From a virus, in the IMG/VR virus record IMGVR_UViG_3300023109_003296, positions 1 to 64,000 of that record: a stretch of 64,000 bases of DNA; one strand, 5' to 3'. The position numbers and the translations under genes are program-made. Position 1 is the stretch's first letter. The number at the start of each line of letters is the position of its first letter. The notes beneath the pieces were generated by a model. The model was given only the letters and a program-made list of their open reading frames with translations. It did no database searches and was not told where the DNA came from. Shown here in pieces: positions 3,696 to 42,644 of the stretch.

Positions 3696-3696
3696 A

Positions 3697-4762: not shown

Positions 4763-4765
4763 AAA

Positions 4766-9739: not shown

Positions 9740-9743
9740 TTAT

Positions 9744-13997: not shown

Positions 13998-13998
13998 G

Positions 13999-16316: not shown

Positions 16317-16369
16317 TTTGTTATTTAGAATTATATTAAATAAAGAATGTCGTTTTTCTAGTTATTTAT

Positions 16370-17440
16370 TTAAAGAATTTTAGTTGGGCTTCTGCATATT
16401 TTCTTGAATTCTTTTTGTATGTCTTTGTAAAAAGGCATCGATTCAAAGCACCACTCTAGGTTAGTGAAGCACTGCAGCAACTCAACCATTTTGTGTTGCC
16501 TTTTGTTTTCGTAAACGCATTGCTCTACAAGAAACTCGCTAAACTTTCTATACATAAAAATACAACAAGCGGCTTTTAAACAAGATCTGAAAAAAGGTTT
16601 GCTGGCATCATAATTTAAATCATGCATATCACAAAAAGTCTTAATCATATTATTAAACATCAGTTTATTAAAATTAAAATTCAAACATGTAAACGAAACA
16701 TCTAAAAAAGGGTTTCCACGAAAACAAAAATTAAAGTCTTCGGCTTTAAATAAGTTTCCATTGGTTGATATGTTTTTAAGATTTAAATCACCGTGACAAA
16801 ATGCATCACACTCAAAAACAGAAAAATCAAAAGATGAATAAAAATACTCTCTGATTGTTTTTAATATTAAATCGACAGACTCTTTAGAGTGGGCTGGATA
16901 TATATATTTTTCACTTATTTCTGGGATGGTATTTGGCAAGTCAAAGTGTTTAAAAACAAAATCCGCATAATCGATAAAAGAAGTTTCGCTTTTGAAGTTC
17001 ATCATAAGGGAACAACATTGGAGAAACATCCATCTTTTTTCATATATAAAAGAAGATCCGACATCCTCTAAAGAGACACCTCTATCAACTTCGTGTATTA
17101 AATATAAAATGTCTTCTCCGATTTTGTGAATACCAGAACTAACATATTTAGGGAGCATTGTAGACTTGTTGTTTTTTAACAAATTAGACTCGTTCTTTAA
17201 TAAAAAGTTATCTTTATCAAAGGAGAGTTTTATACAATATGTTTTATTATCAGTCTCTACAAGAAAAGAATCAAAATCTAAATTAGAATCAGCTGGGGTT
17301 ATATTCAATACTTTTTCATTGATCTTGTCTTTCTTAAACAATTGATCAGAGACTTCAAAATATAGATTATTATTATCCGAAGTCAATCCTTCTAATTCAG
17401 AAAGAAATAGTCCGTTGTTAAAGTATTCTTTATCTATCAC
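16370..17440 (-). CDS. APH/choline-kinase-like phosphotransferase
   Basis: YCIK, HGDLNLKNI (Brenner motif), EDF...GNPFLD. Confidence 0.7.
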   Translation of the reverse strand: MIDKEYFNNGLFLSELEGLTSDNNNLYFEVSDQLFKKDKINEKVLNITPADSNLDFDSFLVETDNKTYCIKLSFDKDNFLLKNESNLLKNNKSTMLPKYVSSGIHKIGEDILYLIHEVDRGVSLEDVGSSFIYEKRWMFLQCCSLMMNFKSETSFIDYADFVFKHFDLPNTIPEISEKYIYPAHSKESVDLILKTIREYFYSSFDFSVFECDAFCHGDLNLKNISTNGNLFKAEDFNFCFRGNPFLDVSFTCLNFNFNKLMFNNMIKTFCDMHDLNYDASKPFFRSCLKAACCIFMYRKFSEFLVEQCVYENKRQHKMVELLQCFTNLEWCFESMPFYKDIQKEFKKICRSPTKIL

Positions 17441-17738: not shown

Positions 17739-17767
17739 ATATTAATATACATTGATTTTATTGTCAA
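17739..17767 (-). promoter_or_regulatory. Sigma70-type promoter
   Basis: TTGACA-17nt-TAATAT, 9 nt before ATG 17729. Confidence 0.65.
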
Positions 17768-20198: not shown

Positions 20199-22738
20199 TT
20201 TAATTCAGAAAGTTTCATGTAGATTTTTTCTTCTATAGTCTCTATCTTGTCGACAAAAACTATATCGTCACCAGCACTACCAACTATTATGGCAATGCTG
20301 CCCTTCTTAGGTAACTTTTTACCAGAGTTTAGGTATTCTGTCAACCTTTCTTCTCTATCTGAGTCTAAAAATAATCCACACACAGGACCCAACTCATCTT
20401 GCATTTCAATTCTTGCATAATTATTATTGTTTCTGCTCTTTCTTTTTATTATATCTGTCACTTCGCCAACAAACTTCACACGCTTCCTTTCTTGAGCATT
20501 TCTGACCTCTTCTGATGTATTGAACGAAGGTTCATCTCCGCTTGTGAATATCTGCCTGATGTTATAAGAATAACTATAACCAAGAAGTTTTGTTTCAAAA
20601 TACCAGTTAGCAAACTTTATATGACTAGAGTTTTGCTCATATATTTTCTTGTATGGTTCATACTTTTTCTTGAATGTATTAAATCTTCTATCTGGAAACA
20701 AGATTCTACCATCATCAGCTGGTGAATTTTCACTTCTGCAAGAATGAATTGTGTTGAGGACATCATAATTAAACTTTTCACCAAGCTCTATAATATTCCT
20801 TTTCTCCCTGTCTGTAAGTGAATTGAATGCCTGAGCCTCTAAAACTAACCTGCATCGATCATGAGTAACAAAAGAATCAAGAAGTCCAGCCTGAATAAAA
20901 GCTGACATTGCGCCAATATTAACACCACAATCTTTTGCAGCAATAAATACATCGTACTTGTTTTCAAAAGATGATTCTCTGAAATTAATAAGGGACTCTA
21001 TGACCTTATCGGAAACCCCTTTAATAGAATTAAGTCCGTATCGAATATTCTTGCCTTCAATTTTAAAATCAAAATCAGAGAGGTTTAGATCTGGAGGCAA
21101 AAGCTTAATGCTAAAGAAGGGTAACTCTTGAGAAATCTTAGCTATTTCTTCATGAGAATTAGGCTCAAATCTAGACATCTTAAGCAAACTCAAGAAGAAC
21201 TCTTGTGGATAATTAAATTTAAGGTAGACCGTAATAGCTGCTAAGTAAGCGTAAGAGATACTGTGAGACTTGTTGAATGAATAGTTAGCCGAGTCTTCCG
21301 CAACTTTCCATAAAACTTCTCCAATAACAGGGTCTAAATTCTTTTCTTTAATTTTATCTTCGATCTTAGCTTTCCATGCTGGCATGTCTTCGACCTTCTT
21401 CTTCCCCACGATGCGCCTCAACTGCTCTGACTCGTCCAAGCTAAAGCCAACCTTAACAGCCATCTTCATCAACTGCTCTTGATAAAGCGGAATACCTCCA
21501 GTATAACTAAGTATGTCGTCAAAGAACTCATGCACAGATTGGAAGTCTCCTGTTCTGGCATAATCAGCATACCTATCTTTAAAGTCTAAAGCTCCTGGAC
21601 GAGCGATAGCTACAACAGCGGATAGTTCCTCCAAGCTTTTAGGTGATATTTGTTTGCAAACCTTGAAATTTGTATCAGCCTCAATCTGAAATAACCCTTT
21701 GGGTTGTTGTAGGCAAGCTAACGCCGCATAGATGCTTTCGTCTCCAGGGTCAATCTCAGAGGCTTTGATGCCAATTTGATTACATGTATCATTAACAACA
21801 GAGAGCGTCCTCAAACCAAGGATATCGAACTTAACGCTAAGACTAGCAACATCATCCATATCGTAACCAGAAACTAAAGCTCCATCATTGGTCTTTTGCA
21901 AGGGCATGATATCTCCTTGACTGAAGTAACTGATTGATATACCAGAAGGGTGAACGCCAGTGTTCTTAATTAATCCTTCTAGTTTTTTTGCAATTTTATA
22001 TGATTTTTTATGTTGATCTGCAAACTTTTTGAAAGATTCGCTTTCTTCATAAGCCACATCAAGCTTTGCAACCTTGCCAAAATGTTTAGGTATAGTATCA
22101 CTAATTTGATTTACATCAACTTCAGACAACTCACCCACGATCTTACCACACTCCTTCATGCAGAGCTTAGAACTAAGCGTGTTAAGAGTTAGGATTTTGG
22201 ATGTTTTACCTTCGTATTTATCTTCAATATACTTAATAACTTCAGCCCTCCTATCATAAGAGATGTCGTTATCAATATCAGCAAGTAAAGAGCCGTCAAG
22301 GAGTACTTCACCATCATGAATAATTTTTCTTGCCCTGCTCTTTGAGACGAATCTTTCGAAGAATAGTTCATATTTAATTGGGTCAATGTTTGTTACACTT
22401 AAAAGGAAAAGGACCAAGCTACCAGCCGCACTTCCTCTTCCAGCGCCAGTTGGAATCTCATTAACTTTACAAAAGTTCATTATGTCCCAGTTGAGTAGTA
22501 TATAATCAACGAAACCAAGATCATCCAAAATGTCAATCTCCATCTGGGTACGGTCATAATAATCTTTTCTGTTGTCAGCTTTAATTAAACCTTTATCTCT
22601 AAGACCTTGTCGGCACAGCTGTTTAAGGATGTCTAACGAAGAAGCACCAGGATTCAATCCTAGATCACGGAGCTTTGAGTCGGGGACGCTAATCTCTGGG
22701 AGTTTAACTCCTACAGGAAATGGGGTTTTATATCTCAT
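20195..22738 (-). CDS. dnaE: DNA polymerase III alpha catalytic core (lacks PHP domain)
   Basis: GRGSAAGSLV, LFFERF, DIDND, GVHPSG, KFDILGL, YQEQLM, YSFNKSHS, C-terminal OB fold. Confidence 0.93.
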   Translation of the reverse strand: MRYKTPFPVGVKLPEISVPDSKLRDLGLNPGASSLDILKQLCRQGLRDKGLIKADNRKDYYDRTQMEIDILDDLGFVDYILLNWDIMNFCKVNEIPTGAGRGSAAGSLVLFLLSVTNIDPIKYELFFERFVSKSRARKIIHDGEVLLDGSLLADIDNDISYDRRAEVIKYIEDKYEGKTSKILTLNTLSSKLCMKECGKIVGELSEVDVNQISDTIPKHFGKVAKLDVAYEESESFKKFADQHKKSYKIAKKLEGLIKNTGVHPSGISISYFSQGDIMPLQKTNDGALVSGYDMDDVASLSVKFDILGLRTLSVVNDTCNQIGIKASEIDPGDESIYAALACLQQPKGLFQIEADTNFKVCKQISPKSLEELSAVVAIARPGALDFKDRYADYARTGDFQSVHEFFDDILSYTGGIPLYQEQLMKMAVKVGFSLDESEQLRRIVGKKKVEDMPAWKAKIEDKIKEKNLDPVIGEVLWKVAEDSANYSFNKSHSISYAYLAAITVYLKFNYPQEFFLSLLKMSRFEPNSHEEIAKISQELPFFSIKLLPPDLNLSDFDFKIEGKNIRYGLNSIKGVSDKVIESLINFRESSFENKYDVFIAAKDCGVNIGAMSAFIQAGLLDSFVTHDRCRLVLEAQAFNSLTDREKRNIIELGEKFNYDVLNTIHSCRSENSPADDGRILFPDRRFNTFKKKYEPYKKIYEQNSSHIKFANWYFETKLLGYSYSYNIRQIFTSGDEPSFNTSEEVRNAQERKRVKFVGEVTDIIKRKSRNNNNYARIEMQDELGPVCGLFLDSDREERLTEYLNSGKKLPKKGSIAIIVGSAGDDIVFVDKIETIEEKIYMKLSELK

Positions 22739-23367
22739 AGTTCTATGTCGTAAAGTTGTTTGTGGAATATTTCGAAATTCATTTCTATATCGTAAAGAGC
22801 ATCATGCAACCTTTTAGCGTCGAAGTCAATCTCATACTTTTTAAGTAGGGTTAATTGGGATGTTTTAAGACCTCTCTCTCTATAGTTGAGCCATCTATAC
22901 TGCCAATAGATAAAATCATGATTGGGCACAGGAGACTCTTTGGCAATAGCTGTAGCTATAGCTTTTGTATCAATGATTCTATTAATATAATCTTGATGTA
23001 ACGGCTCTCCAATAAGTTTTCTCCAAACATCAATCATATAAACATCAAAACCCAAGAGATTTTGTCCTACTATTTTATAAGAGTCGTCATATAAATACTT
23101 TGAAAATTCATCCCAAACCTTCTTGGGGTCTTCAGCATTCTTCTCGTAGTGAGATTGGCTGAACCCAGTTATTCTTGCAGCGTCTTTTGATACGTTTAAA
23201 TCGTCCCAATATATAAGCTTATCATACTTCTTAATAATTTTATTGCCCTGCGCAACAATCCAAGCCGCTTGCCAGGGCTTAGATTTAACCAAATTCAAAC
23301 CTTCGGTTTCTGTATCAAAAATTATATACTTTTGATTTCTGTTGTATCTTAATAAGTCGTTGTTCAT
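22735..23367 (-). CDS. DEDDh 3'-5' exonuclease (DnaQ-like)
   Basis: FDTETEG, GQN..GFD, HDALYD. Confidence 0.88.
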   Translation of the reverse strand: MNNDLLRYNRNQKYIIFDTETEGLNLVKSKPWQAAWIVAQGNKIIKKYDKLIYWDDLNVSKDAARITGFSQSHYEKNAEDPKKVWDEFSKYLYDDSYKIVGQNLLGFDVYMIDVWRKLIGEPLHQDYINRIIDTKAIATAIAKESPVPNHDFIYWQYRWLNYRERGLKTSQLTLLKKYEIDFDAKRLHDALYDIEMNFEIFHKQLYDIEL

Positions 23368-24080
23368 TACTTGGTATTTTCTATGTATGATTCAAAACAA
23401 AACTCGTCACTAGAGAAGTGACTTAAGTTAGGGCACGACAATGTAGCTTGTCTGCCAAAGCTTCTATTACAAAGAATCTTGTATGTCTGAAGAGCTTCTA
23501 CATCTTCTTTGTTCTTATAGTATATAGACTTAACATGACTAATATCATAAGAGTCTTCCGCATACTCTAGAACTTTTTGACAAATAAGACGATCATAAGG
23601 TAAGTTGTTATTCTCAACCCAAAACCTAGGATTCAAACCATCAAGTTCAGGTATGCAGTTCTTAAGAAATAGATTGTTTTGGTGGATAAAACTATCATAG
23701 AAAGGAACGACAAAGCATAAAGAATCTTTGTCCCAAAAAGATTTGAGCTCCTCGTAAGTGATACGACCGTCGTTATCAACAAAAGCTTTGGAATATATCT
23801 TATTCATAAGCTTGCATCCGTTATCATCCAGAGCAAATACAACAGCCTTATGGTTCGAATCTTTACTGTCGATGTCATTACACATCGTAATTCTTAATCC
23901 ATATGTTAAATCTATATTGTTTTTAACACAGGCGTTAAAAGCCTTCATGAAGCTAGTGAGATTGTCCTCTACTAAAGTTAATGTTTTATAGTCTTTATCT
24001 TTACATATTTGAATGATATCATCAATACGCAAAATGCTTTTGCCTGTAGAGTAGGTTGACTTGAAAATAGGTTTCATCAC
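23367..24080 (-). CDS. Stand-alone, degenerate PHP domain of Pol III alpha
   Basis: KSTYSTGKSIL, LTLVEDN, YGLRI, ALDDNGCKLMNKIYS match the DnaE N-terminus without the metal-binding His residues. Confidence 0.75.
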   Translation of the reverse strand: MMKPIFKSTYSTGKSILRIDDIIQICKDKDYKTLTLVEDNLTSFMKAFNACVKNNIDLTYGLRITMCNDIDSKDSNHKAVVFALDDNGCKLMNKIYSKAFVDNDGRITYEELKSFWDKDSLCFVVPFYDSFIHQNNLFLKNCIPELDGLNPRFWVENNNLPYDRLICQKVLEYAEDSYDISHVKSIYYKNKEDVEALQTYKILCNRSFGRQATLSCPNLSHFSSDEFCFESYIENTK

Positions 24081-27674: not shown

Positions 27675-27889
27675 GTTACGTCTTCTAATTTTTGGAGGTA
27701 AGATTCAATGGTTTTGATAAGACCCATTTCAATCAGATGGCTTTCGCACTTGTTGTGTATAATTGGGTATCCTTTTTCATTCGAATAAACCAGAACAAAA
27801 CCCTTATACTTGTCAGCAGAACCAGTTAGTTCATACAGCTTGTCTAAGAAGTTTTCTGGTATCGAAAATTCTATATCGTCATTACTCAT
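27671..27889 (-). CDS. Hypothetical protein
   Basis: 72-aa ORF with ATGA overlaps on both sides. Confidence 0.7.
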   Translation of the reverse strand: MSNDDIEFSIPENFLDKLYELTGSADKYKGFVLVYSNEKGYPIIHNKCESHLIEMGLIKTIESYLQKLEDVT

Positions 27890-28293
27890 AAATATGTATC
27901 TTGGTCATTAAATAAGGATGCATTTATCTCATCCGTAGTATAAACCTCTACCAACTTTATATCATTTATTTCACAGAAGTCAAGTTTCTTTTGATCTCTT
28001 TTCAATTGATCCAAGTACTTTAACCTGTTCTTGTGAAAGTGTTTTACAAAACGAACATGCTGATCTCCTTGAACCTCAACTGCAACTTTTTTATTTGCAT
28101 TATAAAAATCCAAAGATAGTCTCGTACCTACGATTCTGAACTCTTCAAAAACAATATCATTACACCAATAATCCTTCAAGAAGTCTTTGACTCTATTTTG
28201 GAATTTACTTCTGCTCTTGGCTTCCCAATCAATCAAATATTTTTTAGCTCCTTTTAGGTTTCTAGGCTTACCTAATGGATCTAGAAACTTCAT
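27886..28293 (-). CDS. Vsr/DUF559-like endonuclease
   Basis: LDFY...VAVEVQGDQH...RDQKK..FC. Confidence 0.75.
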   Translation of the reverse strand: MKFLDPLGKPRNLKGAKKYLIDWEAKSRSKFQNRVKDFLKDYWCNDIVFEEFRIVGTRLSLDFYNANKKVAVEVQGDQHVRFVKHFHKNRLKYLDQLKRDQKKLDFCEINDIKLVEVYTTDEINASLFNDQDTYL

Positions 28294-29877: not shown

Positions 29878-30924
29878 TTACGATAGATCTAAATCATTGT
29901 CAATCATCTTTTTAACAAGACCATAGAAATCGGTTTTTCTTACCCAACCCATTTCCTTTTCCGCAAGACTAGGATCGCCAAGAAGCAAGCTAACTTCAGC
30001 TGGTCGGTAATATTTAGGGTTGATTGTCACAAGCACTTGATCTCCGTGCATGTATTTTTGGTCGAGACCTTGACCGTCCCAATGACACTGTTCTGCACCG
30101 AATCCAGCAAAGCCAAACGCAGCCTCTACGAACTCACGAATAGTATATGTCTCGCCAGATGCTAAAACATATTCTCTCAAATCTTCGTACGAGTTTGCAG
30201 GTTGATTTAGCATTAGCCAAATACCAACCACAAAATCCTCTGCATCTGACCAATCTCTTTTGGCTTCTAGATTACCAAGCTCAAGAGGTTTAGGTGTTTT
30301 TCCGTCTCTGATCTCCTTGACGATTCTGGAAACACCTTTAGTTACTTTGCGGGTAAGAAATTCTTCGCCCCTCCTTGTTCCTTCATGATTAAATAACCAT
30401 CCTTGAACAGCATAAAGATTATAACTCTCTCTCCATACTTTTACCAAGTGCCTCGCAGATGCCTTAGAAGCTCCGTATGGGCTTCTTGGGCGCAGTGGGT
30501 GAGTCTCGTTCTGGGGAGAGGTTACAACATCCCCAAACTCTTCTGAGGAGCCAGCATTGTAGTACCTGCACTCTGGACAGTGCTTGCGGATAGCTTCAAG
30601 CTGATATAGTACTGCCATGCAATTTGTTTTCATGTGGTTCTCTGGCATATCCCAGCTAACACCGACAAAAGAATTTGCAGCAAAGTTTATAAAGTAATCA
30701 GGCTTTTCTTCTGAGATCACACGATCAACATTTGATTGGTCGGTTATATCAAGATCAATAAGCTTAAAGCGATCATTGTTCGCTAGGTGTTTAATGTTAT
30801 CGTGGTTTTTTACTGAAAGTCGACGTACGCCAGCAATAATGTCAATGTCGGTGTTCGCCAACAAATAATCAACCATGTGGCTACCATCCTGCCCCGTTAC
30901 TCCTGTTATGATTGCTTTACTCAT
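29878..30924 (-). CDS. gmd: GDP-mannose 4,6-dehydratase
   Basis: ITGVTGQDGS, AANSFV..SW, SSEEFG, PRSPYGASK, LFNHEG.RRG.EF.TRK, LGNL.AKRDW, RPAEV..LLGD. Confidence 0.95.
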   Translation of the reverse strand: MSKAIITGVTGQDGSHMVDYLLANTDIDIIAGVRRLSVKNHDNIKHLANNDRFKLIDLDITDQSNVDRVISEEKPDYFINFAANSFVGVSWDMPENHMKTNCMAVLYQLEAIRKHCPECRYYNAGSSEEFGDVVTSPQNETHPLRPRSPYGASKASARHLVKVWRESYNLYAVQGWLFNHEGTRRGEEFLTRKVTKGVSRIVKEIRDGKTPKPLELGNLEAKRDWSDAEDFVVGIWLMLNQPANSYEDLREYVLASGETYTIREFVEAAFGFAGFGAEQCHWDGQGLDQKYMHGDQVLVTINPKYYRPAEVSLLLGDPSLAEKEMGWVRKTDFYGLVKKMIDNDLDLS

Positions 30925-30942
30925 ATACACTATAGTATATAG

Positions 30943-31836
30943 TTAGTTATTATTTTCAAGCCATCGTTTAAGTTTTAAAGATGGGCCCCAATCTAATAAT
31001 TTTTTTGCTTTTTTATTGCAAGACAGACTTTCTCTTGGCTCCTGCCTCTCACTCACAAATGTTTTTTCGCCCCCTATTGCATCTGCTATTTCCTTAACTG
31101 AGGTTGCTTGATTTGATCCTATATTTATAGACTCTCCTTTTCCCACGTTTTGTGATGTCATGGCCAACATGTTAGCGGAAGCAACATCACCGACATAAAT
31201 AAAATCCCTAGTTTGATTTCCATCACCGACAATAGTCAGGGGTTTGTGTTCTTTTTTTTGCTTGAGAAACACACCTACTACAGAACTATAATCACCGCTA
31301 ACTGGCTGACCTTCTCCAAATACATTAAAGTACCTTAAGTTGACAGTTTCTAATCCGTATGCATGACTAAACAACCGACAATATTCTTCACTTATTAATT
31401 TTTGTAATCCGTATGGGCTACATGGTTTTTTTTTAGAACCTTCTTTTGTAGGTAAATTTTTTACATTACCATAAACAGCGGAAGAAGAGCTGTTAACAAC
31501 CCTTTTGACTCCAGTATCTTTAGCCCATGTCAAGATGTTTAAAGTTCCGTCTACGTTTTGTTTGTTGTAATTGATAGGATCCTCTATCGACTCTTGAACT
31601 TTTGTTAATGCCGCTAAATGAAAAACCCCATCAGAGCCAGACATCTCCTGTTTAATTATACGCTCGTACATCGAGTTTGAAATGTCAGCAAAACAAACCT
31701 TTGCTTTTTTGTTAATGTTCGCTTTTTTGCCACTTATAAAATTATCGATGACAGTAACTGTGTGTCCTTGGTTAATTAGTAGATCAACAAGACGGCAGCC
31801 TATGAAGCCAGCTCCTCCTATAACTATATATTTCAT
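30943..31836 (-). CDS. NAD-dependent nucleotide-sugar epimerase/dehydratase (GalE/WbpP-like)
   Basis: GGAGFIG, FHLAA, SSSAVYG, YGLQK, RYFNVFG, GDG.QTRDF. Confidence 0.88.
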   Translation of the reverse strand: MKYIVIGGAGFIGCRLVDLLINQGHTVTVIDNFISGKKANINKKAKVCFADISNSMYERIIKQEMSGSDGVFHLAALTKVQESIEDPINYNKQNVDGTLNILTWAKDTGVKRVVNSSSSAVYGNVKNLPTKEGSKKKPCSPYGLQKLISEEYCRLFSHAYGLETVNLRYFNVFGEGQPVSGDYSSVVGVFLKQKKEHKPLTIVGDGNQTRDFIYVGDVASANMLAMTSQNVGKGESINIGSNQATSVKEIADAIGGEKTFVSERQEPRESLSCNKKAKKLLDWGPSLKLKRWLENNN

Positions 31837-32603
31837 ATTTGAATCCAGTCTTTACACTTAATAAAACTGTCGTTAGTGTTATCTCCAAACCATTTTTTAG
31901 GACATATTACTATTTTGTTTGGGTTTTTATTTAACCAGGCTCCCCACCAACTGAAGCTACTGTTAGCTATGATATTGTCAGAACACAGAGACATATAATG
32001 TAAGTCCTCTATATTTGTATTACCTTCCATAAAAATAACATTTGGAATATTTAAGTTTTCCTTGCACCAATCTATATCGTCAGAAAAAACAAATATGTTC
32101 CCCTTTGGTTTAATCAACTCTAGCGCTTTTTCGTAATAAGATATAGGCTGTAGCGGATGTATATGTTGTAGGCCGACATAGTCCCCACGACGAATATGAA
32201 TAGAGCAAGAGTTTTCAAAATCAAAATCTTTTGCTTTCGGCCAATAGAATAAATCTAATATTTCATCTCTATACTTATTATAATACTCTTCGCACTGCCA
32301 ATAACCATTGAGATAATAATTATTATCAGCTTTTATTTCTGGCTTTTTAAAATTAAAGTCGTCAGTTATTATGTGTGCCGACTTCTGACTAAAGAAGTGT
32401 AAAATATGTTGGTTCGATATAGGTATATTACCTTTTATTATTTTTGGCAATTCGTATTCTCTTGCATCAACCGAGTAATTATGATCTTGGTTTTTATAAA
32501 AAGAAACGTCAAAGTAAACTTCATTGTTCTTAGACAAAGCATATCCATAAGCCCATTGGAAAAGTTGATTGCATAAACCAGCTTGTAATTTAAATATTAT
32601 CAT
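31833..32603 (-). CDS. GT11 alpha-1,2-fucosyltransferase
   Basis: GLCNQLFQ, GYWQ, SIHIRRGDY, VFSDDI.WC, IIANSSFSWWGAWL. Confidence 0.92.
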   Translation of the reverse strand: MIIFKLQAGLCNQLFQWAYGYALSKNNEVYFDVSFYKNQDHNYSVDAREYELPKIIKGNIPISNQHILHFFSQKSAHIITDDFNFKKPEIKADNNYYLNGYWQCEEYYNKYRDEILDLFYWPKAKDFDFENSCSIHIRRGDYVGLQHIHPLQPISYYEKALELIKPKGNIFVFSDDIDWCKENLNIPNVIFMEGNTNIEDLHYMSLCSDNIIANSSFSWWGAWLNKNPNKIVICPKKWFGDNTNDSFIKCKDWIQI

Positions 32604-32618
32604 TAACTATTATTTTAT

Positions 32619-33185
32619 TCATAAAGACCAAGAGCAAACAGTAGGAAATACTGTAGGCTGTTTTTTGTAATTATACTTCTCGTTATCTATAATATTCCAA
32701 CCGTAAAGATTCGGGGCAGTATTAAAATCATGAGCAAAAACAAATTCAATTCCTTTACTAAAAAAATAATTGACGCTTTCCCCTCTACCGTGGAAACCTT
32801 GGTCAACAAAAGCTACATCAATACTAGACAGATCAACAAATGATTCTAGTTCTTCGAAGTATTTTTCGAGTGCAGAAGTATCCCTTACTGATCCGTTGCT
32901 GGAAAGGAGTTTTTCATCAGATTTGTCAATACCATAATGTTCAAAGCTTCTAAAATAGCCATGCCAGTTTTCAAAGTTTTTTAAATCTTCTTCGGTTTTT
33001 TTGTACCAATAATTATTTTTAGCGGTCTCAAAAGAAAAAACAGACTTAAATTCTTCGCATAGTTTTTTTGTCCCTATTCCGCAGCCGAGTTCTATTATGT
33101 TTTTGTTTTTTTTGTTTGATATGGTGTCCAATACTGGATACCAGTTTGTATACATTTCTATTAATGTTTTTTCATCGTAAGTCAT
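32619..33185 (-). CDS. Class I SAM-dependent methyltransferase-like protein
   Basis: IIELGCGIGT, VFSFE, DVAFVD, AHD. Confidence 0.6.
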   Translation of the reverse strand: MTYDEKTLIEMYTNWYPVLDTISNKKNKNIIELGCGIGTKKLCEEFKSVFSFETAKNNYWYKKTEEDLKNFENWHGYFRSFEHYGIDKSDEKLLSSNGSVRDTSALEKYFEELESFVDLSSIDVAFVDQGFHGRGESVNYFFSKGIEFVFAHDFNTAPNLYGWNIIDNEKYNYKKQPTVFPTVCSWSL

Positions 33186-33187
33186 AA

Positions 33188-33910
33188 CTAAATAAAAGAG
33201 GATGTTTGTCTTGGTATTTGATAATTTTTGTTGTTAGGGTTTATTATTACCCCTTTATTGAGGTCAAAAATACAATTTATTCCATAACGCTCATTATCTA
33301 TAGTATCAAAAAGGTATACAATTTCATCTTTTATTTTTAATTTTTCAAAAGGGCCAATTCCATCCGTACTTTTTGAGTATAGGTATTGATACAAAAATTT
33401 AATATACAGCCCTCTGTTATGAGGGTTGTCGTCAGCGGGATTGTTAACGCAAAATCTAATAAGTTCAAGAAGTATGGGGCTTTTTCTTTTTGCGGCAATT
33501 ATACCGTTAGCCATAATTTTTTCAACAGTCTTAGTTTGGCCATTTCTAAAAGTACAGCTAAAACCCTCCGCACCTCTTCCAAAAGAAGTTATAAAATCAC
33601 CCATAAAAGACAACTCTTTAAACGGCAACAAAACTTCTAAGTCAACATCTAAATAAAAACCTCCACGAAGATATAATAGGCAGTATCTCATCAAGTCTGA
33701 CTTATGACAAAGCCTGGGGAGTTTGTCTATTGTTTGGCATATTATGTTCGGGTCTATACCATCAAACTCTTTAAGTATAAGATCTTTACCTTCATCAAAA
33801 TCAAAAATGTTGTAACTGTATGTTGGGTTCAGGGTTTTTATTCTGTCTGTTATTAACTCTGGAACTAATTTTTTGTCGTGGTAGATTTGAAATATGTTTT
33901 TGGGTATCAT
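33188..33910 (-). CDS. GT32 (OCH1-like) DXD glycosyltransferase
   Basis: MIPKNIFQ, KSDLMRYCLLYLRGGFYLDVD. Confidence 0.88.
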   Translation of the reverse strand: MIPKNIFQIYHDKKLVPELITDRIKTLNPTYSYNIFDFDEGKDLILKEFDGIDPNIICQTIDKLPRLCHKSDLMRYCLLYLRGGFYLDVDLEVLLPFKELSFMGDFITSFGRGAEGFSCTFRNGQTKTVEKIMANGIIAAKRKSPILLELIRFCVNNPADDNPHNRGLYIKFLYQYLYSKSTDGIGPFEKLKIKDEIVYLFDTIDNERYGINCIFDLNKGVIINPNNKNYQIPRQTSSFI

Positions 33911-33911
33911 G

Positions 33912-34574
33912 CTAAATGTTTCTTTGTATTTGAGACTTTTCTGAATCCATTATAGACTGTGGGACCTTTATTGATATTGAGTTGTCATTTAAATAGTAAT
34001 TAGCAAATGCAAAATCAATATACTTCGGTTCCCATTTTTTCATAATCCTAACCCAATAATCGTAATCCCAACAAAGTCTCATTTCTTCATTGAATTCACC
34101 TATTTTTAAATAAACTTCTTTTTTAAAAAAACAAGATGGCTGCGGAATATAATTAGCTTCCTTCATATCCTTTAGGTTTACTCTTTCTTTGTAATATGTG
34201 CCAGTAGCTTTTCCGTTAACATGGTAATTCAACCTTCCAAAGTACCACTTTGATTCGTCTAAGTTTTCTATTAATGTAGAAAAAGCATTTTCACAAAAAC
34301 AATCGTCATGGTGAAAAACACTAATGATGTCTCCTGTTGTATGCTTGATAGCCTGATTGCAAGCATGACCTAAAGATGAATCTTCGCACGAAATAATCTT
34401 TATTTTATTATGATTAAAATCATTTTTTAGTTTGCCTAGCTCTTCTTCTGTTCCGTTATGTTTTATAACTATTTCCCAGTTATCATAACTTTGATTTTTA
34501 ATTTTATCAATGCAGTCAAAAAGCTTAGTATGGGAATAATCTTTTATAGCTATAATTATGCTTATTAAAATCAT
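33912..34574 (-). CDS. GT2 glycosyltransferase
   Basis: ISIII, NQSYDNWEIVI, ACNQAIK, HHDD, PQPS.FF, DYDYW. Confidence 0.85.
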   Translation of the reverse strand: MILISIIIAIKDYSHTKLFDCIDKIKNQSYDNWEIVIKHNGTEEELGKLKNDFNHNKIKIISCEDSSLGHACNQAIKHTTGDIISVFHHDDCFCENAFSTLIENLDESKWYFGRLNYHVNGKATGTYYKERVNLKDMKEANYIPQPSCFFKKEVYLKIGEFNEEMRLCWDYDYWVRIMKKWEPKYIDFAFANYYLNDNSISIKVPQSIMDSEKSQIQRNI

Positions 34575-35254
34575 GACCTTATTTTTGAGTGATTCTTATC
34601 TAATGCTATTAGCTTTGCTTTATATGGTGGGCGCAACGATTCACCATAACAATAACCTGGATCTAAAACTTTTGTCGGAGGATTATCAATAAAGTATCTA
34701 TTCATGTGACTTTCGTCATGCCAAATAGCCATGACGTTATTTTCTTTATCTATGTCTATATTGTCAGAAAGTTTTTTGCACATCTTTAAATATTCGCTAG
34801 AAGAACCCCCATTAAAACCACCAGCAAAGTATTGCATTTTTTCAAATATAGAAACACAAGCTAGTGATTCTGGGTTTGTATCAGGTGTACCTCTCCCACC
34901 GCAAAAAGCTGGATGTTGAGTAGCGACTCTTTCAGAAAGTATTTCATCTCCGACGGCATCACAAAACAGCATGTCAACGTCGCAATAGAAAAGATAATCT
35001 TTACCACATAGTTCTTCTTTGTTTCTCTCAAATATTTTATATCTTCCAAGAGTCATCCAGGGCCACTTTTTGTGATCAGTTTTTATTACATTTATTTTTC
35101 TTTTTGAAGCAATCCCCAAATCTTCATTGTCTGTGAATACAAAGTATTCCACATCAAAACCGCTAAGTAAGAACTCGTCTGCGCTAGTAATAAGATCGCT
35201 TAAAAAATCTGTATACTTATTCGTAGCTATAATTAATAAACCTACTTTTTTCAT
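34571..35254 (-). CDS. GT6 (ABO-family) alpha-1,3-GalNAc/Gal transferase
   Basis: IATNKY, YFVFTD, WPWMTLGRY, DYLFYCDVDM, YFAGGFNGG, WHDESHMNRYF. Confidence 0.92.
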   Translation of the reverse strand: MKKVGLLIIATNKYTDFLSDLITSADEFLLSGFDVEYFVFTDNEDLGIASKRKINVIKTDHKKWPWMTLGRYKIFERNKEELCGKDYLFYCDVDMLFCDAVGDEILSERVATQHPAFCGGRGTPDTNPESLACVSIFEKMQYFAGGFNGGSSSEYLKMCKKLSDNIDIDKENNVMAIWHDESHMNRYFIDNPPTKVLDPGYCYGESLRPPYKAKLIALDKNHSKIRS

Positions 35255-36003
35255 TTTTCTAAAGAGTTAATTAACATCATAAATTCAAGGCACTTTTTAT
35301 CACTAATATCTTGAGGATTCTTTTTGTAAGCAAAATCATTTTGAAAATAATAAGTATGGTCATAATGCCAAACAGTATTGTTTTCATCAAAGCTTATCCT
35401 TACGCCAGCCTCTTTCAACTTAACAGAAAAATCAATATCCTCATTATAATCAAAGCCGTTCAGTTTACCATAAAAAGGTATTTCGTTACTCCATTCTACT
35501 TCATCTAGCAAGGATCTTTTACATACAGAGAAAGCCCCACACTGATAAAGCAATGTATGAGGATCTAATGTCTCATCAAAATCATAAGAAACCATCTTAT
35601 GTCTAGGCAGGTAAATAGCTCTATCATAGTACCGACCTCCATCTGGTAAAAATATTTTAGTACCAAGAACTTTCCAATCTGGATTTTTGCTATTGTATTC
35701 CTCTAGCTTAAACAGCCAATCATTGGGAAAAATAATATCATCATCACAATGGACAATAATATCTGCGCTTGTATTTTTTGTGCCTATGTTTTTTCTCGCA
35801 CCGAGAAACTTATTATACTCGTTGTCTTCTACAAGCTTAACACCTAGATCTTTAAACTGATCTATATTGTCACCAACAATTACAATTTCGTAATTTTCTT
35901 TTACGTTGAAGTTGGCATGTATAGACTTTATACAGAGATTCGTCTCTCTTGGTCTTTCTCCATTAGAAATAATACAGAATGATACTTTAGGCTTTAGATC
36001 CAT
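35251..36003 (-). CDS. GT2 glycosyltransferase
   Basis: VSFCII, YEIVIV, ARKNIG, HCDDD, NEDIDFS. Confidence 0.82.
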   Translation of the reverse strand: MDLKPKVSFCIISNGERPRETNLCIKSIHANFNVKENYEIVIVGDNIDQFKDLGVKLVEDNEYNKFLGARKNIGTKNTSADIIVHCDDDIIFPNDWLFKLEEYNSKNPDWKVLGTKIFLPDGGRYYDRAIYLPRHKMVSYDFDETLDPHTLLYQCGAFSVCKRSLLDEVEWSNEIPFYGKLNGFDYNEDIDFSVKLKEAGVRISFDENNTVWHYDHTYYFQNDFAYKKNPQDISDKKCLEFMMLINSLEK

Positions 36004-36016
36004 AAAGGATCATAAA

Positions 36017-36985
36017 TCAAACATCATCGTTTTCAATTATTTCACAATCTTTTAAATGATCGTAGCCGTTGAAATAATCATCGTTTTCAATAACAGAGGA
36101 CTCATCCCAACCCCACTCGCTAACAGCTTCTTCGTCATCCCACTCAAGAGCTTCGGAAGAAACAGATTTATTGACAGGCTTTTTGCTCCACATCTTACAA
36201 GACCAGTAACGAGGTGTGGTTTTGTCTTTTGCGCTATCGCATTTATGTCTGGCTCTAAAGCTACGACGACGATCAGGGTCATCTCTTTTGATCTCCATAT
36301 TTGGGTCGCCAAATTTAACCATAACTACGTTGCCAGTTTTAGAGTTTTTCACATATACTCCAAACTTTTTTTTGCCATCCTTTAATCTAAAAGGCTTGTT
36401 CAAGGTTTTTTTCTCAGCTTCAGAGAACTCAAGCTCTTCAGCTTCTTGGTCTTGTTCCCAAGATTCAATGCCAGCTTTTAATAGATCAATTTTTGCTAGT
36501 TGAAATTCAATTTCTTCGAAGTCCCAGAAAGCTTCACCTTCTTTTTCGAGATAGTATTCTTCAGAACCTTTTGCAATATCGCTGTCAGCAGCTTTGTAAG
36601 ACTTTTTAACTTTGCCACCTCTAGCCATTTTCAGGAAAGTATTTACTCTAGCCATTGCCCATTGACCTCTAGTCATTCCAGGTCTGTGACTAGAACTAAA
36701 TGCACCAGCACCTCTACGATATACTTTTTTAAGTTGAGCAAGAGTAACTTTCTTGGAGTGTTTTTCGTTATGTTCTTTAACTTTTGTTTGTAAAGCAGAA
36801 ATAACTTTATCAGAAAACGTTATTTTTTTACCATCTTTACCAGCACTACCCTTCTCGTTTTTGCTAGAACCTTCTTTTTTTTCGCTTTTTTTAGCAGGTG
36901 TTTGAGCCGAACCTTTTGGTCCTGGTCTTTTTGCTGACTGGCTTTCTAAAAACGTTTTTGCTTGGTCTGAAAAATCGTACTCCAT
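36017..36985 (-). CDS. Two-domain basic hypothetical viral protein
   Basis: LKKVYRRGAGAF..SHRPG....WAMARVN and KFGDPNM...RRRSFRARHKC...YWSCKMW blocks; function unknown. Confidence 0.7.
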   Translation of the reverse strand: MEYDFSDQAKTFLESQSAKRPGPKGSAQTPAKKSEKKEGSSKNEKGSAGKDGKKITFSDKVISALQTKVKEHNEKHSKKVTLAQLKKVYRRGAGAFSSSHRPGMTRGQWAMARVNTFLKMARGGKVKKSYKAADSDIAKGSEEYYLEKEGEAFWDFEEIEFQLAKIDLLKAGIESWEQDQEAEELEFSEAEKKTLNKPFRLKDGKKKFGVYVKNSKTGNVVMVKFGDPNMEIKRDDPDRRRSFRARHKCDSAKDKTTPRYWSCKMWSKKPVNKSVSSEALEWDDEEAVSEWGWDESSVIENDDYFNGYDHLKDCEIIENDDV

Positions 36986-40047: not shown

Positions 40048-40075
40048 TTGACACTCACTTTTTATAGCATATAAT
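40048..40075 (+). promoter_or_regulatory. Sigma70-type promoter, probably leaderless
   Basis: TTGACA-16nt-TATAAT, 7 nt before ATG 40083. Confidence 0.7.
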
Positions 40076-40082
40076 GAAAAAC

Positions 40083-40670
40083 ATGTCTGTATACGATTGC
40101 AAAATAATAAGTATATCTGGAAACGCCAGGTGTGGTAAGGACACCATGGGAAATAACTTTTCCTCTGCATTATCAGAGATAGGAATAAAAACAAAAACTG
40201 TCTCCTTCGCTAATGAGTTAAAGAAATCAGTGAATAGTTTTCTCTTGGAACAAACTGGCATTTCTGCTTTTACAGAAGACGATGAAGAAAAGAAAATTAT
40301 AAGACCATTTCTTGTTTGCTGGGGCACAGATGTAATCAGAAAGATAGATAATAACACATGGATAAACAAACTTGAAAAAAACTTATGTGATAAATCTGTC
40401 AACATAATAACAGACTTAAGGTTCCTTAATGAACTCAATTGGGTTAAGTCAAATAATGGATTTTCCATTATGCTTGAAAGAGAGGGTATAGAACCAGCCA
40501 ATGATTACGAAAAGTCAAACAACCACCAAATATCTAAGGAGGTTGACTTAAATTTTTCTGTTGGAAATTTTGAAGATAGTGAGCTTTTGATGTTGACTTC
40601 TGTTCAAATACTTGATAAACTAATTAACAAAGAAACATACGACCTATGGAAAGCGACCTGTCCCTTATAA
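40083..40670 (+). CDS. Deoxynucleoside monophosphate kinase-like P-loop protein
   Basis: ISGNARCGKDT, SFANELK, RPFL..WGT..R, ITDLRF.NE; the ATG at 40074 overlaps the -10 box, so 40083 is preferred. Confidence 0.8.
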   Translation: MSVYDCKIISISGNARCGKDTMGNNFSSALSEIGIKTKTVSFANELKKSVNSFLLEQTGISAFTEDDEEKKIIRPFLVCWGTDVIRKIDNNTWINKLEKNLCDKSVNIITDLRFLNELNWVKSNNGFSIMLEREGIEPANDYEKSNNHQISKEVDLNFSVGNFEDSELLMLTSVQILDKLINKETYDLWKATCPL

Positions 40671-41582: not shown

Positions 41583-42644
41583 ATGAAAATTTTAGTAGAT
41601 GCACCACTAAATTCCTTGAGCCTTGGTAATGTTAGTTATAACATTATCAAGGAGCTTAAGGGCAAGGGTCATGATGTGGCTGTATGGCCAATGAACGAAG
41701 GCAATGTTGATCTCTCTGCTTATAACGTTTCAGACGAATTTAAGGAGTTTTTACAAGATGCTATAGATAAGCGTTTTGATTTTCTATCTAAAGACATACC
41801 ATCCATTAAGGTTTGGCATTTAAACGGATCTGAAAACAGAAAAAATCCAAATCAGTATCTTTATACTTTTTACGAATGTAGTGATCCAACTGATATCGAG
41901 AAAAAGCTTTGCGAAGCTCAAAACAAAACAATATTCAGTTCTTCTTGTTCAGCTGAAATGTTTAATGCTGAGTTTGTTCCTCTTGGATTCGATAGAGATT
42001 TCTTCAAGACTGATAAGTCTTATCTGAAAGATGTAACTCATTTTGGTTTAATGGGTAAGTTTGAGAACAGAAAACATACAGCTAAAATCATTCAAACATG
42101 GGTTAAAAAGTATGGAAACAATAACAAATACCAATTAAGTTGTTGTGTAAATAATCCGTTCTTCAAGGAAGAAGAAATGAATCACCTTATTAACAATTCA
42201 CTTGGTGGACAAAGATATACAAATGTAAACTTCTTGCCTTATCTTAAAACTAATAATGAGGTTAACGAATTATTAAACTCTATCGATATTGATCTTACTG
42301 GTCTTTCTGGAGGAGAAGGTTGGAACCTTCCAGCATTTAACGCTACATGCCTAGGCAAGTGGAGTATTGTTCTAAATGAAACTTCCCACAAAGACTGGGC
42401 AACTAAAAACAATTCAATTCTAATTGATTCTAGTTCTAAGGTAGATTCCCATGACGGAAGGTTCTTTATGAAGGGTTCTAACTTTAATCAGGGTCAATTT
42501 TATGATTGGGATACTGATGAAGTAGCATATGCCATGGAAAAAGCTGAAGAAAAAGTAGGACAAATTAACACAGAGGGACAAAAATTAGCGGACAAATTTA
42601 CCTACTCTAAAACAGTTGATGGTATTTTATCCCATATTTCCTAG
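41583..42644 (+). CDS. GT4-like (GT-B) glycosyltransferase
   Basis: SLGNVS, YTFYE, VPLGFD, GKFENRK, SGGEGWNLP. Confidence 0.75.
   Translation: MKILVDAPLNSLSLGNVSYNIIKELKGKGHDVAVWPMNEGNVDLSAYNVSDEFKEFLQDAIDKRFDFLSKDIPSIKVWHLNGSENRKNPNQYLYTFYECSDPTDIEKKLCEAQNKTIFSSSCSAEMFNAEFVPLGFDRDFFKTDKSYLKDVTHFGLMGKFENRKHTAKIIQTWVKKYGNNNKYQLSCCVNNPFFKEEEMNHLINNSLGGQRYTNVNFLPYLKTNNEVNELLNSIDIDLTGLSGGEGWNLPAFNATCLGKWSIVLNETSHKDWATKNNSILIDSSSKVDSHDGRFFMKGSNFNQGQFYDWDTDEVAYAMEKAEEKVGQINTEGQKLADKFTYSKTVDGILSHIS

Follow-up and report, generated by a model that had tools for sequence, protein, structure and literature searches.

The 64,000-nt window that we analyzed belongs to an 89,844-bp record (∼72% complete) of an uncultured marine phage whose terminase is no more than 27% identical to that of any cultured phage. 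Positions 29878 to 36003 hold eight open reading frames (ORFs), all on the minus strand and spaced −4 to +15 nt apart. From 36003 to 29878 the gene order is GT2a, GT6, GT2b, a GT32-like gene, orf188, GT11, an epimerase gene (Epi), and Gmd. The ORF coordinates and the Pfam matches agree with a sequence-only reading of the window, which had described eight tightly packed, co-oriented genes of these families. The island sits between RNR and UvsX, in a block of replication and nucleotide metabolism genes and outside the structural genes. None of the eight proteins has a membrane segment, and the island has no gene for an initiating transferase, flippase, polymerase, ligase, or lipid carrier. We found no integrase or other lysogeny gene among the scanned proteins. 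The structural module holds two Asp/Asn β-hydroxylase genes.

GT2a (35251..36003, minus strand; 250 amino acids [aa]) encodes an inverting glycosyltransferase (GT) of the GT-A fold (PF00535, 3e-8; PF13641, 1e-6) with DDD at residues 87 to 89, and its stop overlaps the start of GT6 by 4 nt. GT6 (34571..35254, minus strand; 227 aa; PF03414, 9e-43; phrog_3317, 3e-56) is by its sequence a member of a published clade ("clade 1") of minimal catalytic domains with D-X-D, which includes the GT6 of the Prochlorococcus cyanophage P-SSM2, marine-metagenome homologues, and PaGT6 of Parachlamydia (Thiyagarajan et al. 2012, PMC3516806). Like them, it lacks a stem or membrane-binding domain and keeps D-V-D (residues 92 to 94), the catalytic Glu (WHDES, 178 to 182), and the H-acceptor residues; it differs in having Ala, not Gly or Tyr, after His-Pro (HPA, 114 to 116), and its function is predicted from sequence. 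The best PDB match is BoGT6a (2.6e-41), with the human ABO transferases at about 2e-34. When aligned with the solved enzymes by HMMER, CDVDM pairs with human VDVDM and BoGT6a FNANL, and YFAGGFNGG, as had been proposed, aligns with the human enzymes (YYMGGFFGG, in the mutant chain 3sx7) and with BoGT6a YYAGGLSGG. Ala217 corresponds to human Ala343 in the fucose pocket, and His114 and Lys220 are also present. The donor triplet AGG (144 to 146) is that of the GalNAc-transferase BoGT6a, in keeping with the earlier suggestion that small pocket residues favor a GalNAc donor. The protein also lacks the bulky Met266 that shuts GalNAc out of GTB (PMC4202792). At residue 235 it has Ala, whereas GTA and BoGT6a have Gly and GTB has Ser.

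Among 82 viral GT6 proteins, D-X-D and WHDES are present in all, AGG in 80, the fucose-pocket Ala in 81, and Ala at residue 235 in 2. The sequence-only reading had remarked on the DVD motif; it is indeed kept where BoGT6a has NAN, but it is no peculiarity of this phage, because the whole viral clade has D-X-D. According to PMC3516806, PaGT6, the only minimal D-X-D member assayed, is a metal-dependent A-synthase that transfers GalNAc to H-trisaccharide or 2′-fucosyllactose and does not use LacNAc. The acceptor and donor positions of the phage GT6 agree with those of A-type enzymes, and we predict that it is a retaining, metal-dependent α-1,3-GalNAc-transferase acting on Fuc-α-1,2-Gal. NCBIfam calls this subfamily "family 6 glucosyltransferase" (NF041524); GT6 scores 195 bits against that model, under the cutoff of 250.

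GT11 (31833..32603, minus strand; 256 aa; PF01531, 5e-30; phrog_2644, 2e-44) has, at residues 136 to 141, the HIRRGD motif described for its family (PMC4202792) and is predicted to be an α-1,2-fucosyltransferase, the maker of the H-type acceptor. Gmd (29878..30930, minus strand; 350 aa; GTG start) matches GDP_Man_Dehyd over its full length (PF16363, 8e-100). Its 11 best PDB matches are all GDP-mannose 4,6-dehydratases (211 to 252 bits, versus 124 bits for Rmd), Y152xxxK is present, and it scores 312 bits against TIGR01472, under the cutoff of 415; by homology it is this dehydratase, which catalyzes the first committed step to GDP-fucose. Epi (30943..31836, minus strand; 297 aa) is an extended SDR of the NAD-dependent epimerase family (PF01370, 2e-62) with GGAGFIG at 7 to 13, Ser at 116 to 119, Y142xxxK146, and YFNV. 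Its best PDB matches are 6dnt, PelX (6wjb and 6wj9), 4zrm, WbpP (1sb8), and WbgU, and its nearest solved kin are the group-3 UDP-GlcNAc 4-epimerases. A Ser aligns with the last Ser of PelX DIRHS. The sugar-wall motif, TKVQ versus ASVQ in PelX and ASVP in 6dnt, counts against a UDP-GlcNAc 4-epimerase, and the galE model gives 171 bits, under its cutoff of 262. We predict a UDP-hexose/HexNAc 4-epimerase that would supply UDP-GalNAc from UDP-GlcNAc.

The next enzyme of the GDP-fucose pathway, Fcl, had been reported as having no clear gene in the window, and this holds for the full 89,844-bp record. The only match to the Fcl model there is Epi, at 51 bits versus a cutoff of 500, which rules out Epi as Fcl; the record has only two SDR-fold genes. 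Fcl is also absent from the closest large relative (G001), but in other phages it adjoins Gmd in 27 of 30 cases. Because the record has no Fcl, this step is probably supplied by the host, and the GDP-fucose supply therefore depends on the host.

The middle of the island is variable. It consists of GT2b (33912..34574, minus strand; 220 aa; PF00535, 1e-12), the GT32-like gene (33188..33910, minus strand; 240 aa), and orf188 (32619..33185, minus strand; 188 aa). The GT32-like protein has a DXD sugar-binding region (DVD at 88 to 90) and matches Gly_transf_sug (PF04488, 2e-9), which we take to be CAZy GT32; it presumably adds an α-linked sugar. None of 80 GT6-bearing viral loci has a homologue of it at 10 kb or less from GT6. 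The methyltransferase label given earlier to orf188 finds no significant match in Pfam (best E, ∼0.1), but the fold agrees with it. An AF2 model from a 64-sequence alignment has a pLDDT of 97, and its Foldseek PDB matches, among those listed, are all class-I SAM methyltransferases (TM, 0.43 to 0.59). An exhaustive HMMER search found 105 relatives, and the family has an invariant E-x-G-x-G-x-G motif I and invariant E32, G34, E53, D128, and R134. The family profile matches KsgA/Dim1 in the PDB at 4e-4, in an alignment confined to motif I. We presume that orf188, a divergent protein of the class-I SAM methyltransferase fold, is a sugar O-methyltransferase.

Homologues of GT2a that are 62 to 81% identical adjoin GT6 in six loci of the same lineage, whereas GT2b is only 22 to 27% identical to the GT2 genes at the same position in relatives. 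The middle of the island differs in two same-lineage loci (L007 and L013), and a contig from another seawater run departs exactly at the GT11/orf188 boundary, which is weak evidence. Thus, GT2a, GT6, GT11, and Gmd are a fixed core, and the inner decorating genes are exchanged among near-identical phages. We regard the island as one allelic form of a phage glycan locus that can be swapped.

We surveyed the 80 GT6-bearing viral loci for partners within 10 kb of GT6. GT11 was found in 68, an Epi-type gene in 56, and Gmd in 43, a coupling that is expected if GT6 needs a fucosylated acceptor and UDP-GalNAc. This co-occurrence and the sequences themselves give good support to the earlier proposal of an H-type step followed by an A-type cap. 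The completeness of the cluster, which had been put forward as its main interest, is not distinctive: GT6, GT11, Gmd, Fcl, and Epi all occur within 10 kb in 25 of the 80 loci, P-SSM2, published in 2005, has all five in one cluster, and the Fcl is what is missing here. The P-SSM2 "LPS" cluster (PSSM2_257 to _271) was proposed to change the host cell surface (Sullivan et al. 2005, PMC1079782). It too is a single co-oriented cluster with GT2s and a methyltransferase gene adjoining GT6, and the proteins are 40% (Gmd), 41% (GT11), 45% (GT6), and 39% (Epi type) identical. However, P-SSM2 is a 252-kb T4-like cyanomyovirus, and the present phage is siphovirus-like and at least 90 kb; P-SSM2 has Fcl straight after Gmd, an extra GT1, and a 2OG oxygenase, but no GT32-like or orf188-type gene (tblastn, E ≤ 1e-5). 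The core gene set is therefore already known from P-SSM2 and many other phages. What is particular here is a siphovirus-like backbone without a cultured relative, combined with a fixed core and swapped inner genes.

Judged by sequence, the expected product should be a sugar chain with fucose and a cap like that of human blood group A. The explanation that we favor, and hold to be somewhat probable, is a cytoplasmic assembly line that makes a short, probably methylated, fucosylated oligosaccharide with an A-type cap, GalNAc-α-1,3-(Fuc-α-1,2)-Gal, in the infected cell. We infer the substrates, the linkages, and the order of the steps. Gmd would convert host GDP-mannose to GDP-4-keto-6-deoxymannose, and host Fcl would complete GDP-fucose; Epi would convert host UDP-GlcNAc to UDP-GalNAc. 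GT2a, GT2b, and the GT32-like transferase would place the inner sugars, β-Gal among them, GT11 would add α-1,2-fucose, the D-X-D GT6 would add α-1,3-GalNAc with Mn2+ or Mg2+, and orf188 would methylate one sugar.

That the product is not A-like, through a UDP-Gal or UDP-Glc donor, another GT11 linkage, or another GDP-6-deoxyhexose, seems distinctly unlikely. The missing Fcl, the NCBIfam name (under whose cutoff GT6 falls), and the rare Ala at the GTA Gly235/GTB Ser235 position would fit such a product, as would the existence of at least one α-1,3-fucosyltransferase in the GT11 family (PMC4202792). But the record has no ColD/DegT-type enzyme, and a third SDR (Rmd or ColC, for example) is also missing; with the help of a common host enzyme, the phage could therefore arrive at no GDP-6-deoxyhexose other than GDP-fucose. 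The AGG triplet, the missing Met266, the UDP-GlcNAc-4-epimerase-type gene in 56 of the 80 loci, and the A-synthase activity of PaGT6 (PMC3516806) also speak against it. It is very improbable that the GTs hypermodify phage DNA against restriction, although phage GTs that add diverse glycans to DNA are described (Pyle 2024, cited in PMC12619734), a T4 gp1-like dNMP kinase is encoded at 40074 to 40670, and the first GT2 of a related locus (L010) has a subthreshold match to a TET-associated GT family (3e-4; 21 bits versus a cutoff of 27.5). The 89.8 kb gave no match to a thymidylate-synthase-type hydroxymethylase, TET/JBP, or TAGT (the TET result is a weak negative, because that model matched nothing in the control genomes either), and GT6 and GT11 extend glycans, their acceptors in PMC3516806 and PMC4202792 being Gal-terminated sugars.

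For the acceptor, a host lipid-linked envelope glycan, completed and exported by host machinery, is a reasonable possibility that falls a little short of an even chance. That route needs compatible host enzymes, because the initiating transferase, flippase, polymerase, and ligase are not encoded. The O-antigen clusters of bacterial mimicry loci also encode a flippase and a polymerase. In such loci of Bacteroides ovatus (BoGT6a) and of E. coli O86 (WbnI and WbwK), GT11 and GT6 likewise pair, capping a surface polysaccharide with an A- or B-type structure (PMC4202792, PMC3516806), and BoGT6a is the best solved match to the phage GT6 and shares AGG. As described in PMC3516806, however, the bacterial GT6 enzymes are N-X-N and metal independent, and at the C terminus they have a membrane-binding domain that serves O-antigen assembly; the phage GT6 lacks such a domain. 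With the same chemistry, the acceptor may instead be virion proteins glycosylated in the cytoplasm before lysis, a tentative alternative that we consider rather doubtful; capsid, tail, and giant BspA-type LRR fibers are possible acceptors. The soluble enzymes, the missing lipid-carrier and export genes, and the absence of lysogeny genes among the scanned proteins fit it, as do the two Asp/Asn β-hydroxylase genes of the structural module and the fast exchange of decorating genes, which suits selection on an exposed virion surface. Chlorovirus PBCV-1 is a precedent: its soluble GTs, methyltransferase, and own GDP-sugar enzymes make capsid glycans in the cytoplasm. Phage GTs also glycosylate mycobacteriophage capsid and tail-tube C termini (Freeman 2023, cited in PMC12619734). 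With virion acceptors, the present island would resemble these systems in having soluble virus-encoded GTs and methyltransferase activity that work in the cytoplasm independently of a host lipid-linked pathway, but its enzyme families are different. Against virion acceptors, the island lies away from the structural genes, an acceptor motif was not identified, and our literature search found no glycosylated virion recorded for any GT6-bearing phage. An acceptor other than these two is unlikely.

If host envelope glycans are capped, the cell surface would be altered during infection; if virion proteins are, the phage would encode its own glycan coat, one that would vary from strain to strain.

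The island comprises eight open reading frames (ORFs) lying head to tail on the minus strand at 29878-36003, with intergenic gaps of −4 to +15 nt. Read along that strand, they encode a GT2 glycosyltransferase (GT2a, 35251-36003; Pfam), GT6 (34571-35254; PF03414, 9e-43), a second GT2 (GT2b, 33912-34574; Pfam), a Gly_transf_sug protein (33188-33910; matched in its DXD region, Pfam 2e-9), orf188 (32619-33185; no Pfam family at threshold), GT11 (31833-32603; PF01531, 5e-30), an NAD-dependent epimerase (Epi, 30943-31836; Pfam 2e-62), and GDP-mannose 4,6-dehydratase (Gmd, 29878-30930; PF16363, 8e-100). The Gly_transf_sug protein is called GT32-like here, its DXD region being presumably typical of CAZy GT32. 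The island is part of one long co-directional gene block; upstream are the RNR genes nrdB and nrdA and the gene for a DUF5824 protein, and downstream are a 155-aa zinc-ribbon-like ORF, a UvsX-like recombinase, DnaB, and a primase. When the GC contents of the genes (0.30 to 0.35 for the GT genes, 0.43 for Gmd) are set against the range of the window's 2-kb bins (0.31 to 0.41), we see no mark of recent acquisition. A scan for promoter and terminator patterns gave no convincing boundary signal (62 promoter-like sites versus 42 expected; 9 terminator-like sites versus 6.5), and a megablast search with the 6.1-kb island returned no match among 50,697 phage records. The DUF5824 gene (36017-36985) adjoins the island on the GT2a side; in the more distant lineage of the GT6-bearing viral locus L010 it lies on the opposite side (15732-16949), after the gene for GDP-L-fucose synthase (Fcl), and the neighboring backbone blocks are arranged differently. 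An atlas look-up for DUF5824 gave only other viral DUF5824 clusters, none with a function.

GT6 matched PF03414 over residues 4 to 226 (146.7 bits; cut-off, 25), and its best PDB matches were BoGT6a, the Bacteroides ovatus GT6, and the human ABO transferases. HMMER alignment to these solved structures placed CDVDM opposite human VDVDM and BoGT6a FNANL, so the metal-binding D-X-D is kept (DVD at residues 92 to 94 versus NAN in BoGT6a). WHDES at residues 178 to 182 is the same as human WHDES, which holds the catalytic Glu303, and His114-Pro-Ala is opposite human His233-Pro-(Gly/Ser)235. The donor segment YFAGGFNGG lies opposite YYAGGLSGG of BoGT6a, a proven GalNAc-transferase, and human YY(L/M)G(G/A)FFGG. 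Thus, the DVD motif and the donor-segment alignment had been read correctly from the sequence alone. The donor pocket is AGG, as in BoGT6a, with small residues at human positions 266 and 268; GalNAc is kept out of GTB by its bulky Met266, according to PMC4202792. Ala217 is opposite human Ala343 and BoGT6a Ile228, and Lys220 is opposite BoGT6a Lys231; the human Ala343 position makes room for the acceptor's 2′-fucose, as stated in an excerpt of PMC3516806. These residues suggest an A-type (GalNAc) donor and an H-type acceptor. A residue-level look for N-acetyl contacts in PMC3961637 found nothing.

At 227 aa, GT6 is a catalytic domain only, aligning end to end with the catalytic domains of its relatives; it lacks an N-terminal stem, a transmembrane segment, and a C-terminal membrane-binding domain (maximum 19-residue hydropathy, 1.02). 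As outlined in part of PMC3516806, GT6 clade 1 contains the enzymes of the Prochlorococcus phage P-SSM2, marine-metagenome homologues, and the Parachlamydia enzyme PaGT6; judged by its minimal length and its D-X-D, the window's GT6 is exactly of this type. Nor are its residue features special to this phage, because in a census of 82 GT6 proteins (the window's, those of 80 viral loci, and that of P-SSM2) DxD and WHDES were each present in 82 of 82 and AGG in 80 of 82. Ala occupied the fucose-pocket position in 81 of the same 82. Both GT6 and GT11 already have PHROG families.

GT11 scored 105 bits with PF01531 (versus 23.9) and has HIRRGD at residues 136 to 141; HxRRxD is given, in a section of PMC4202792, as a motif of alpha-2 and alpha-6 fucosyltransferases. 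GT11 is predicted to be an alpha-1,2-fucosyltransferase; linkage is not readable from sequence, and the same section includes an alpha-1,3 enzyme in the GT11 family. Searched against PDB sequences, GT11 had no match at E ≤ 0.01. Gmd matched PF16363 over its full length (335 bits) and contains Y152xxxK; with TIGR01472 it scored 312 bits over the full length, below the NCBIfam equivalog cut-off of 415. Its 11 best PDB matches were all GDP-mannose dehydratases (211 to 252 bits), and the reductase Rmd scored 124.

The sequence-only reading had noted no clear Fcl in the window, and this proved to be so across the whole 89.8-kb IMG/VR record, whose first 64 kb are the window (89,844 bp, linear, and ∼72% complete according to CheckV). 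The sole match to the Fcl model was Epi, at 51 bits versus a cut-off of 500, and we rejected Epi as an Fcl on that score; only two SDR genes are present in the record. A true phage Fcl, in the related record G003, scored 451 bits with the same model. We also considered a colitose or perosamine branch and rejected it, as the record has no DegT/ColD-type enzyme.

Epi is a 297-aa SDR with motifs of the UDP-GlcNAc/UDP-GalNAc 4-epimerases of GalE group 3 (WbpP/PelX type), namely GGAGFIG (residues 7 to 13), Ser116-119, Y142xxxK146, and YFNV. Its EPRES lies opposite DIRHS of the epimerase PelX, with Ser at the end position, which we take to be the substrate gatekeeper, and its sugar-wall motif is TKVQ versus ASVQ in PelX and ASVP in 6DNT. 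It scored 171 bits with the galE model TIGR01179 (cut-off, 262). Its best solved relatives are 6DNT, PelX (6WJ9/6WJB), T. maritima GalE, WbpP, and WbgU. The reference motifs come from PMC12820599, in which 6DNT is the Methanobrevibacter UDP-GlcNAc 4-epimerase; PelX is a group-3 epimerase that prefers N-acetylated UDP-hexoses (bioRxiv 10.1101/2020.05.26.111013).

Exhaustive HMMER searching found 105 relatives of orf188, a word-indexed search gave only 2 hits, and Pfam applied to 64 family members gave 2 weak Methyltransf_23 matches. The structural model reached a pLDDT of 97 with 64 relatives in the alignment; with 3 sequences it was unusable (46.5). All of the Foldseek PDB matches listed were class-I SAM methyltransferases (for example, MnmM, METTL5, KsgA, COMT, and TrmR; TM, 0.43 to 0.59). 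The 64 sequences show little or no variation in motif I (E32-x-G34-x-G36-x-G38) or at the acidic E53 that follows strand 2. The earlier label of methyltransferase for orf188 therefore stands at the level of the fold, on the strength of the model, the Foldseek matches, and motif I.

The island belongs to a kind of phage glycan module that was already known. When IMG/VR was scanned for GT6 relatives, 134 viral contigs carried one, and 80 loci were examined. Because each locus extended at most 10 kb from GT6 and many were truncated where the contig stopped, the counts are minimum values; SDR types were assigned by best-reciprocal match among the SDR queries, and Gmd was counted at ≥35% identity. 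GT11 was found in 68 of the 80 loci, this type of epimerase in 56, Gmd in 43, and Fcl in 32. GT11, Gmd, and Epi together lay within 10 kb of GT6 in 30 loci, and in 25 of the 80 Fcl was there as well. Fcl was ≤300 nt from Gmd in 27 of the 30 loci holding both. As in P-SSM2, the island has GT6, GT11, Gmd, and an SDR of the UDP-hexose-epimerase type clustered in one orientation. In P-SSM2, however, one annotated cluster contains Gmd, Fcl, GT11, a methyltransferase, GT6, and an epimerase, whereas the island has no Fcl. Sullivan et al. 2005 (PMC1079782) named the P-SSM2 genes the “LPS gene” cluster and proposed that they alter the surface of the host. The completeness of the cluster, which had been put forward as its unusual aspect, is thus not borne out: P-SSM2 and 25 of 80 loci have the same set plus the Fcl that the window lacks. 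In the literature searched, which did not extend to the 2010 JBC review of GT6 evolution, we found no paper spelling out the logic of GT11, GT6, and Gmd for phages.

Comparison with close relatives showed that the locus resembles a glycan cassette in which genes are swapped around a constant core of GT2a, GT6, GT11, and Gmd, because the inner genes differ between members of the lineage. Six loci (L005, L007, L008, L012, L013, and L014) have the same backbone as the window, with NrdA 86 to 96% and UvsX 81 to 83% identical where those genes fall inside the locus. The inner genes are GT2b, GT32-like, and orf188 in the window; a sulfotransferase, a GT2, a sulfotransferase, a GT2, and two methyltransferases in L007; and two GT2s and two methyltransferases in L013, from which the epimerase is absent. 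Homologues of GT32-like occurred in 0 of the 80 loci, and homologues of orf188 in 2. The two L007 sulfotransferase genes (9284-11231) are of the Sulfotransfer_3 and Sulfotransfer_2 families, and because the L007 island holds them, a sulfated version of the glycan is predicted there. No Fcl was found within 10 kb of GT6 in any of the six loci or in the whole 98.5-kb record of L013 (G001, ∼79% complete); in a more distant group (L006, L009, and L010) a true Fcl, with 451 bits in G003, directly follows Gmd. A 2,466-nt contig from a different seawater run follows 30788-32605, with 19 differences, and diverges from the window exactly at the GT11/orf188 boundary, and a second run's contig stops at the same base. 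Being contigs only, these breaks are a weak hint of swapping. Contigs of run X2 gave low cover at ∼32.6 to 33.9 kb, which alone is no sign of absence.

The phage itself has a siphovirus-like backbone: minor tail proteins of the lambda type and a central fiber resembling J are encoded at 1302-9739. Other genes code for a DnaE-type polymerase, RNR, an ATPase similar to ClpA, and five LRR proteins of the BspA type. The five LRR genes are consecutive on the minus strand, at 43658-63998 in the window and running on to record position 69884. Two of the products are giants (3,172 and 3,175 aa), and in a 615-aa protein (57652-59499) the LRRs are fused to a Phage_min_tail domain at the N terminus; the LRR proteins are probably tail fibers or adhesins. 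No integrase was found among the proteins scanned, and a tRNA scan found none in the window or the rest of the record. Because tblastn with the terminase gave no cultured phage above 27% identity, no host was inferable from relatives. Near-identical pieces occur in seawater metagenome contigs from several coded studies, with the probable source run left out. No RNA run was listed among the sequencing runs containing the sequence, a result that carries no information on expression. A GT6 scan of cellular genomes gave 10 loci, the best (66%) in a metagenome-assembled genome (MAG) labeled uncultured Flavobacterium. We rejected this as a cellular GT6: the contig holds homologues of the phage's dNMP kinase, Hsp20, and 353-aa GT and is a binned phage contig. 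That a related phage contig was binned into a Flavobacterium MAG is the sole, faint hint of a Flavobacterium host.

Several other features of the record were noted. The DnaE-type polymerase is apparently split (20195-24080): phrog_405 is matched in its N-terminal part by a 237-aa ORF and in the remainder by one of 847 aa, and a gene for a 210-aa exonuclease subunit separates the two. Adjoining the polymerase is an 818-aa ClpA/ClpB-like ATP-dependent protease ATPase (17742-20198; phrog_4871, 652 bits). Between the genes for the UvsX-like recombinase and DnaB there is an inserted HNH or homing-endonuclease-like gene (27886-28293). Outside the island lies a second group of sugar-related genes, at 11577-15858 and 41583-42644: two ORFs with weak likeness to GNAT and to GT9, respectively, a 619-aa GT1 with a DUF4214 domain, and an isolated GT of 353 aa (phrog_2170). 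In the viral loci L018 and L019, homologues of the last two proteins (∼51 to 53% identity) are encoded no more than 10 kb from GT6. The ORFs at 12837-14087 and 13999-15858 share 89 nt, and a wrongly called start in one of them is the probable reason. Three neighboring plus-strand genes with the APH-type phosphotransferase fold, at record positions 76382-79521 (L003 13383-16522), gave weak TCAD9 matches. Two adjacent Asp/Asn beta-hydroxylase (2OG oxygenase) genes, at record positions 85970-86964 (L004 5971-6965), have the large terminase on one side and, on the other, a 654-aa ORF, which has no family match and, judged by position, is probably the portal. Hydroxylation of virion proteins by these enzymes is conceivable.

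What the island makes is, on balance, probably a methylated oligosaccharide capped with GalNAc-alpha-1,3-(Fuc-alpha-1,2)-Gal. Its synthesis would take place in the cytoplasm from the host's GDP-mannose and UDP-GlcNAc, with the host supplying the Fcl step; all of the substrates and linkages are ones that we infer. We favor this product because, across phages, GT6 goes together with GT11, Gmd, and a gene of the UDP-GlcNAc-epimerase type, as would be expected if GT6 needs a fucosylated acceptor and UDP-GalNAc. In this respect the A-antigen-like glycan of the sequence-only reading fits the gene coupling, although the set is not the complete one claimed. DNA glycosylation by the island GTs, by comparison, has no support: no hydroxymethylase of the thymidylate-synthase type, TET/JBP, or TAGT was found, the TET model being one that matched no control genome.

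None of the eight island proteins has a membrane-spanning segment, and no Wzx/Wzy-type gene (initiating polyprenyl-phosphate transferase, flippase, polymerase, or ligase) was found in the island by Pfam or among the other proteins scanned. Because none of these is encoded, the glycan would be built either on a lipid-linked intermediate of the host, which the host's machinery would complete, or on an acceptor that is soluble or a protein, virion proteins for example. The position of the island in the replication block mildly favors an early, host-directed role. Virion proteins are nevertheless a live alternative. Chlorovirus glycosylation is a precedent for virus-encoded virion glycans, and the island enzymes are all soluble. 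Precedents for virus-encoded virion glycosylation also appear as citations in the literature. We think it rather unlikely, but conceivable, that this marine siphovirus makes its own strain-variable virion glycan coat, for example on the giant LRR fibers or the capsid, with an A-like cap and swapped inner decorations. Those decorations would be methyl groups, sulfate, and extra sugars, exchanged much as bacteria exchange O-antigen genes. Such a coat would be a phage counterpart of antigenic variation, and it would be widespread in the ocean, since GT6 and GT11 modules are present in at least 68 viral contigs.

Returning to the A-capped oligosaccharide, what is new here is that the module occurs in a siphovirus-like lineage without a cultured relative, that it can run without its own Fcl, so that the host's fucose pathway would be needed to make the glycan, and that it lies in a locus exchanging inner genes among near-identical phages. 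Such exchange implies diversifying selection on the glycan. The island enzymes, predicted to be small, soluble, and metal-dependent, could serve as biocatalysts for A-type oligosaccharides. Should the chemistry be as predicted, marine phage infection commonly yields ABO-type sugar caps, which are then no speciality of vertebrates and gut bacteria. This would fit the idea, put forward in a portion of PMC3516806, that minimal D-X-D phage GT6 enzymes resemble the ancestor of the vertebrate ABO transferases.
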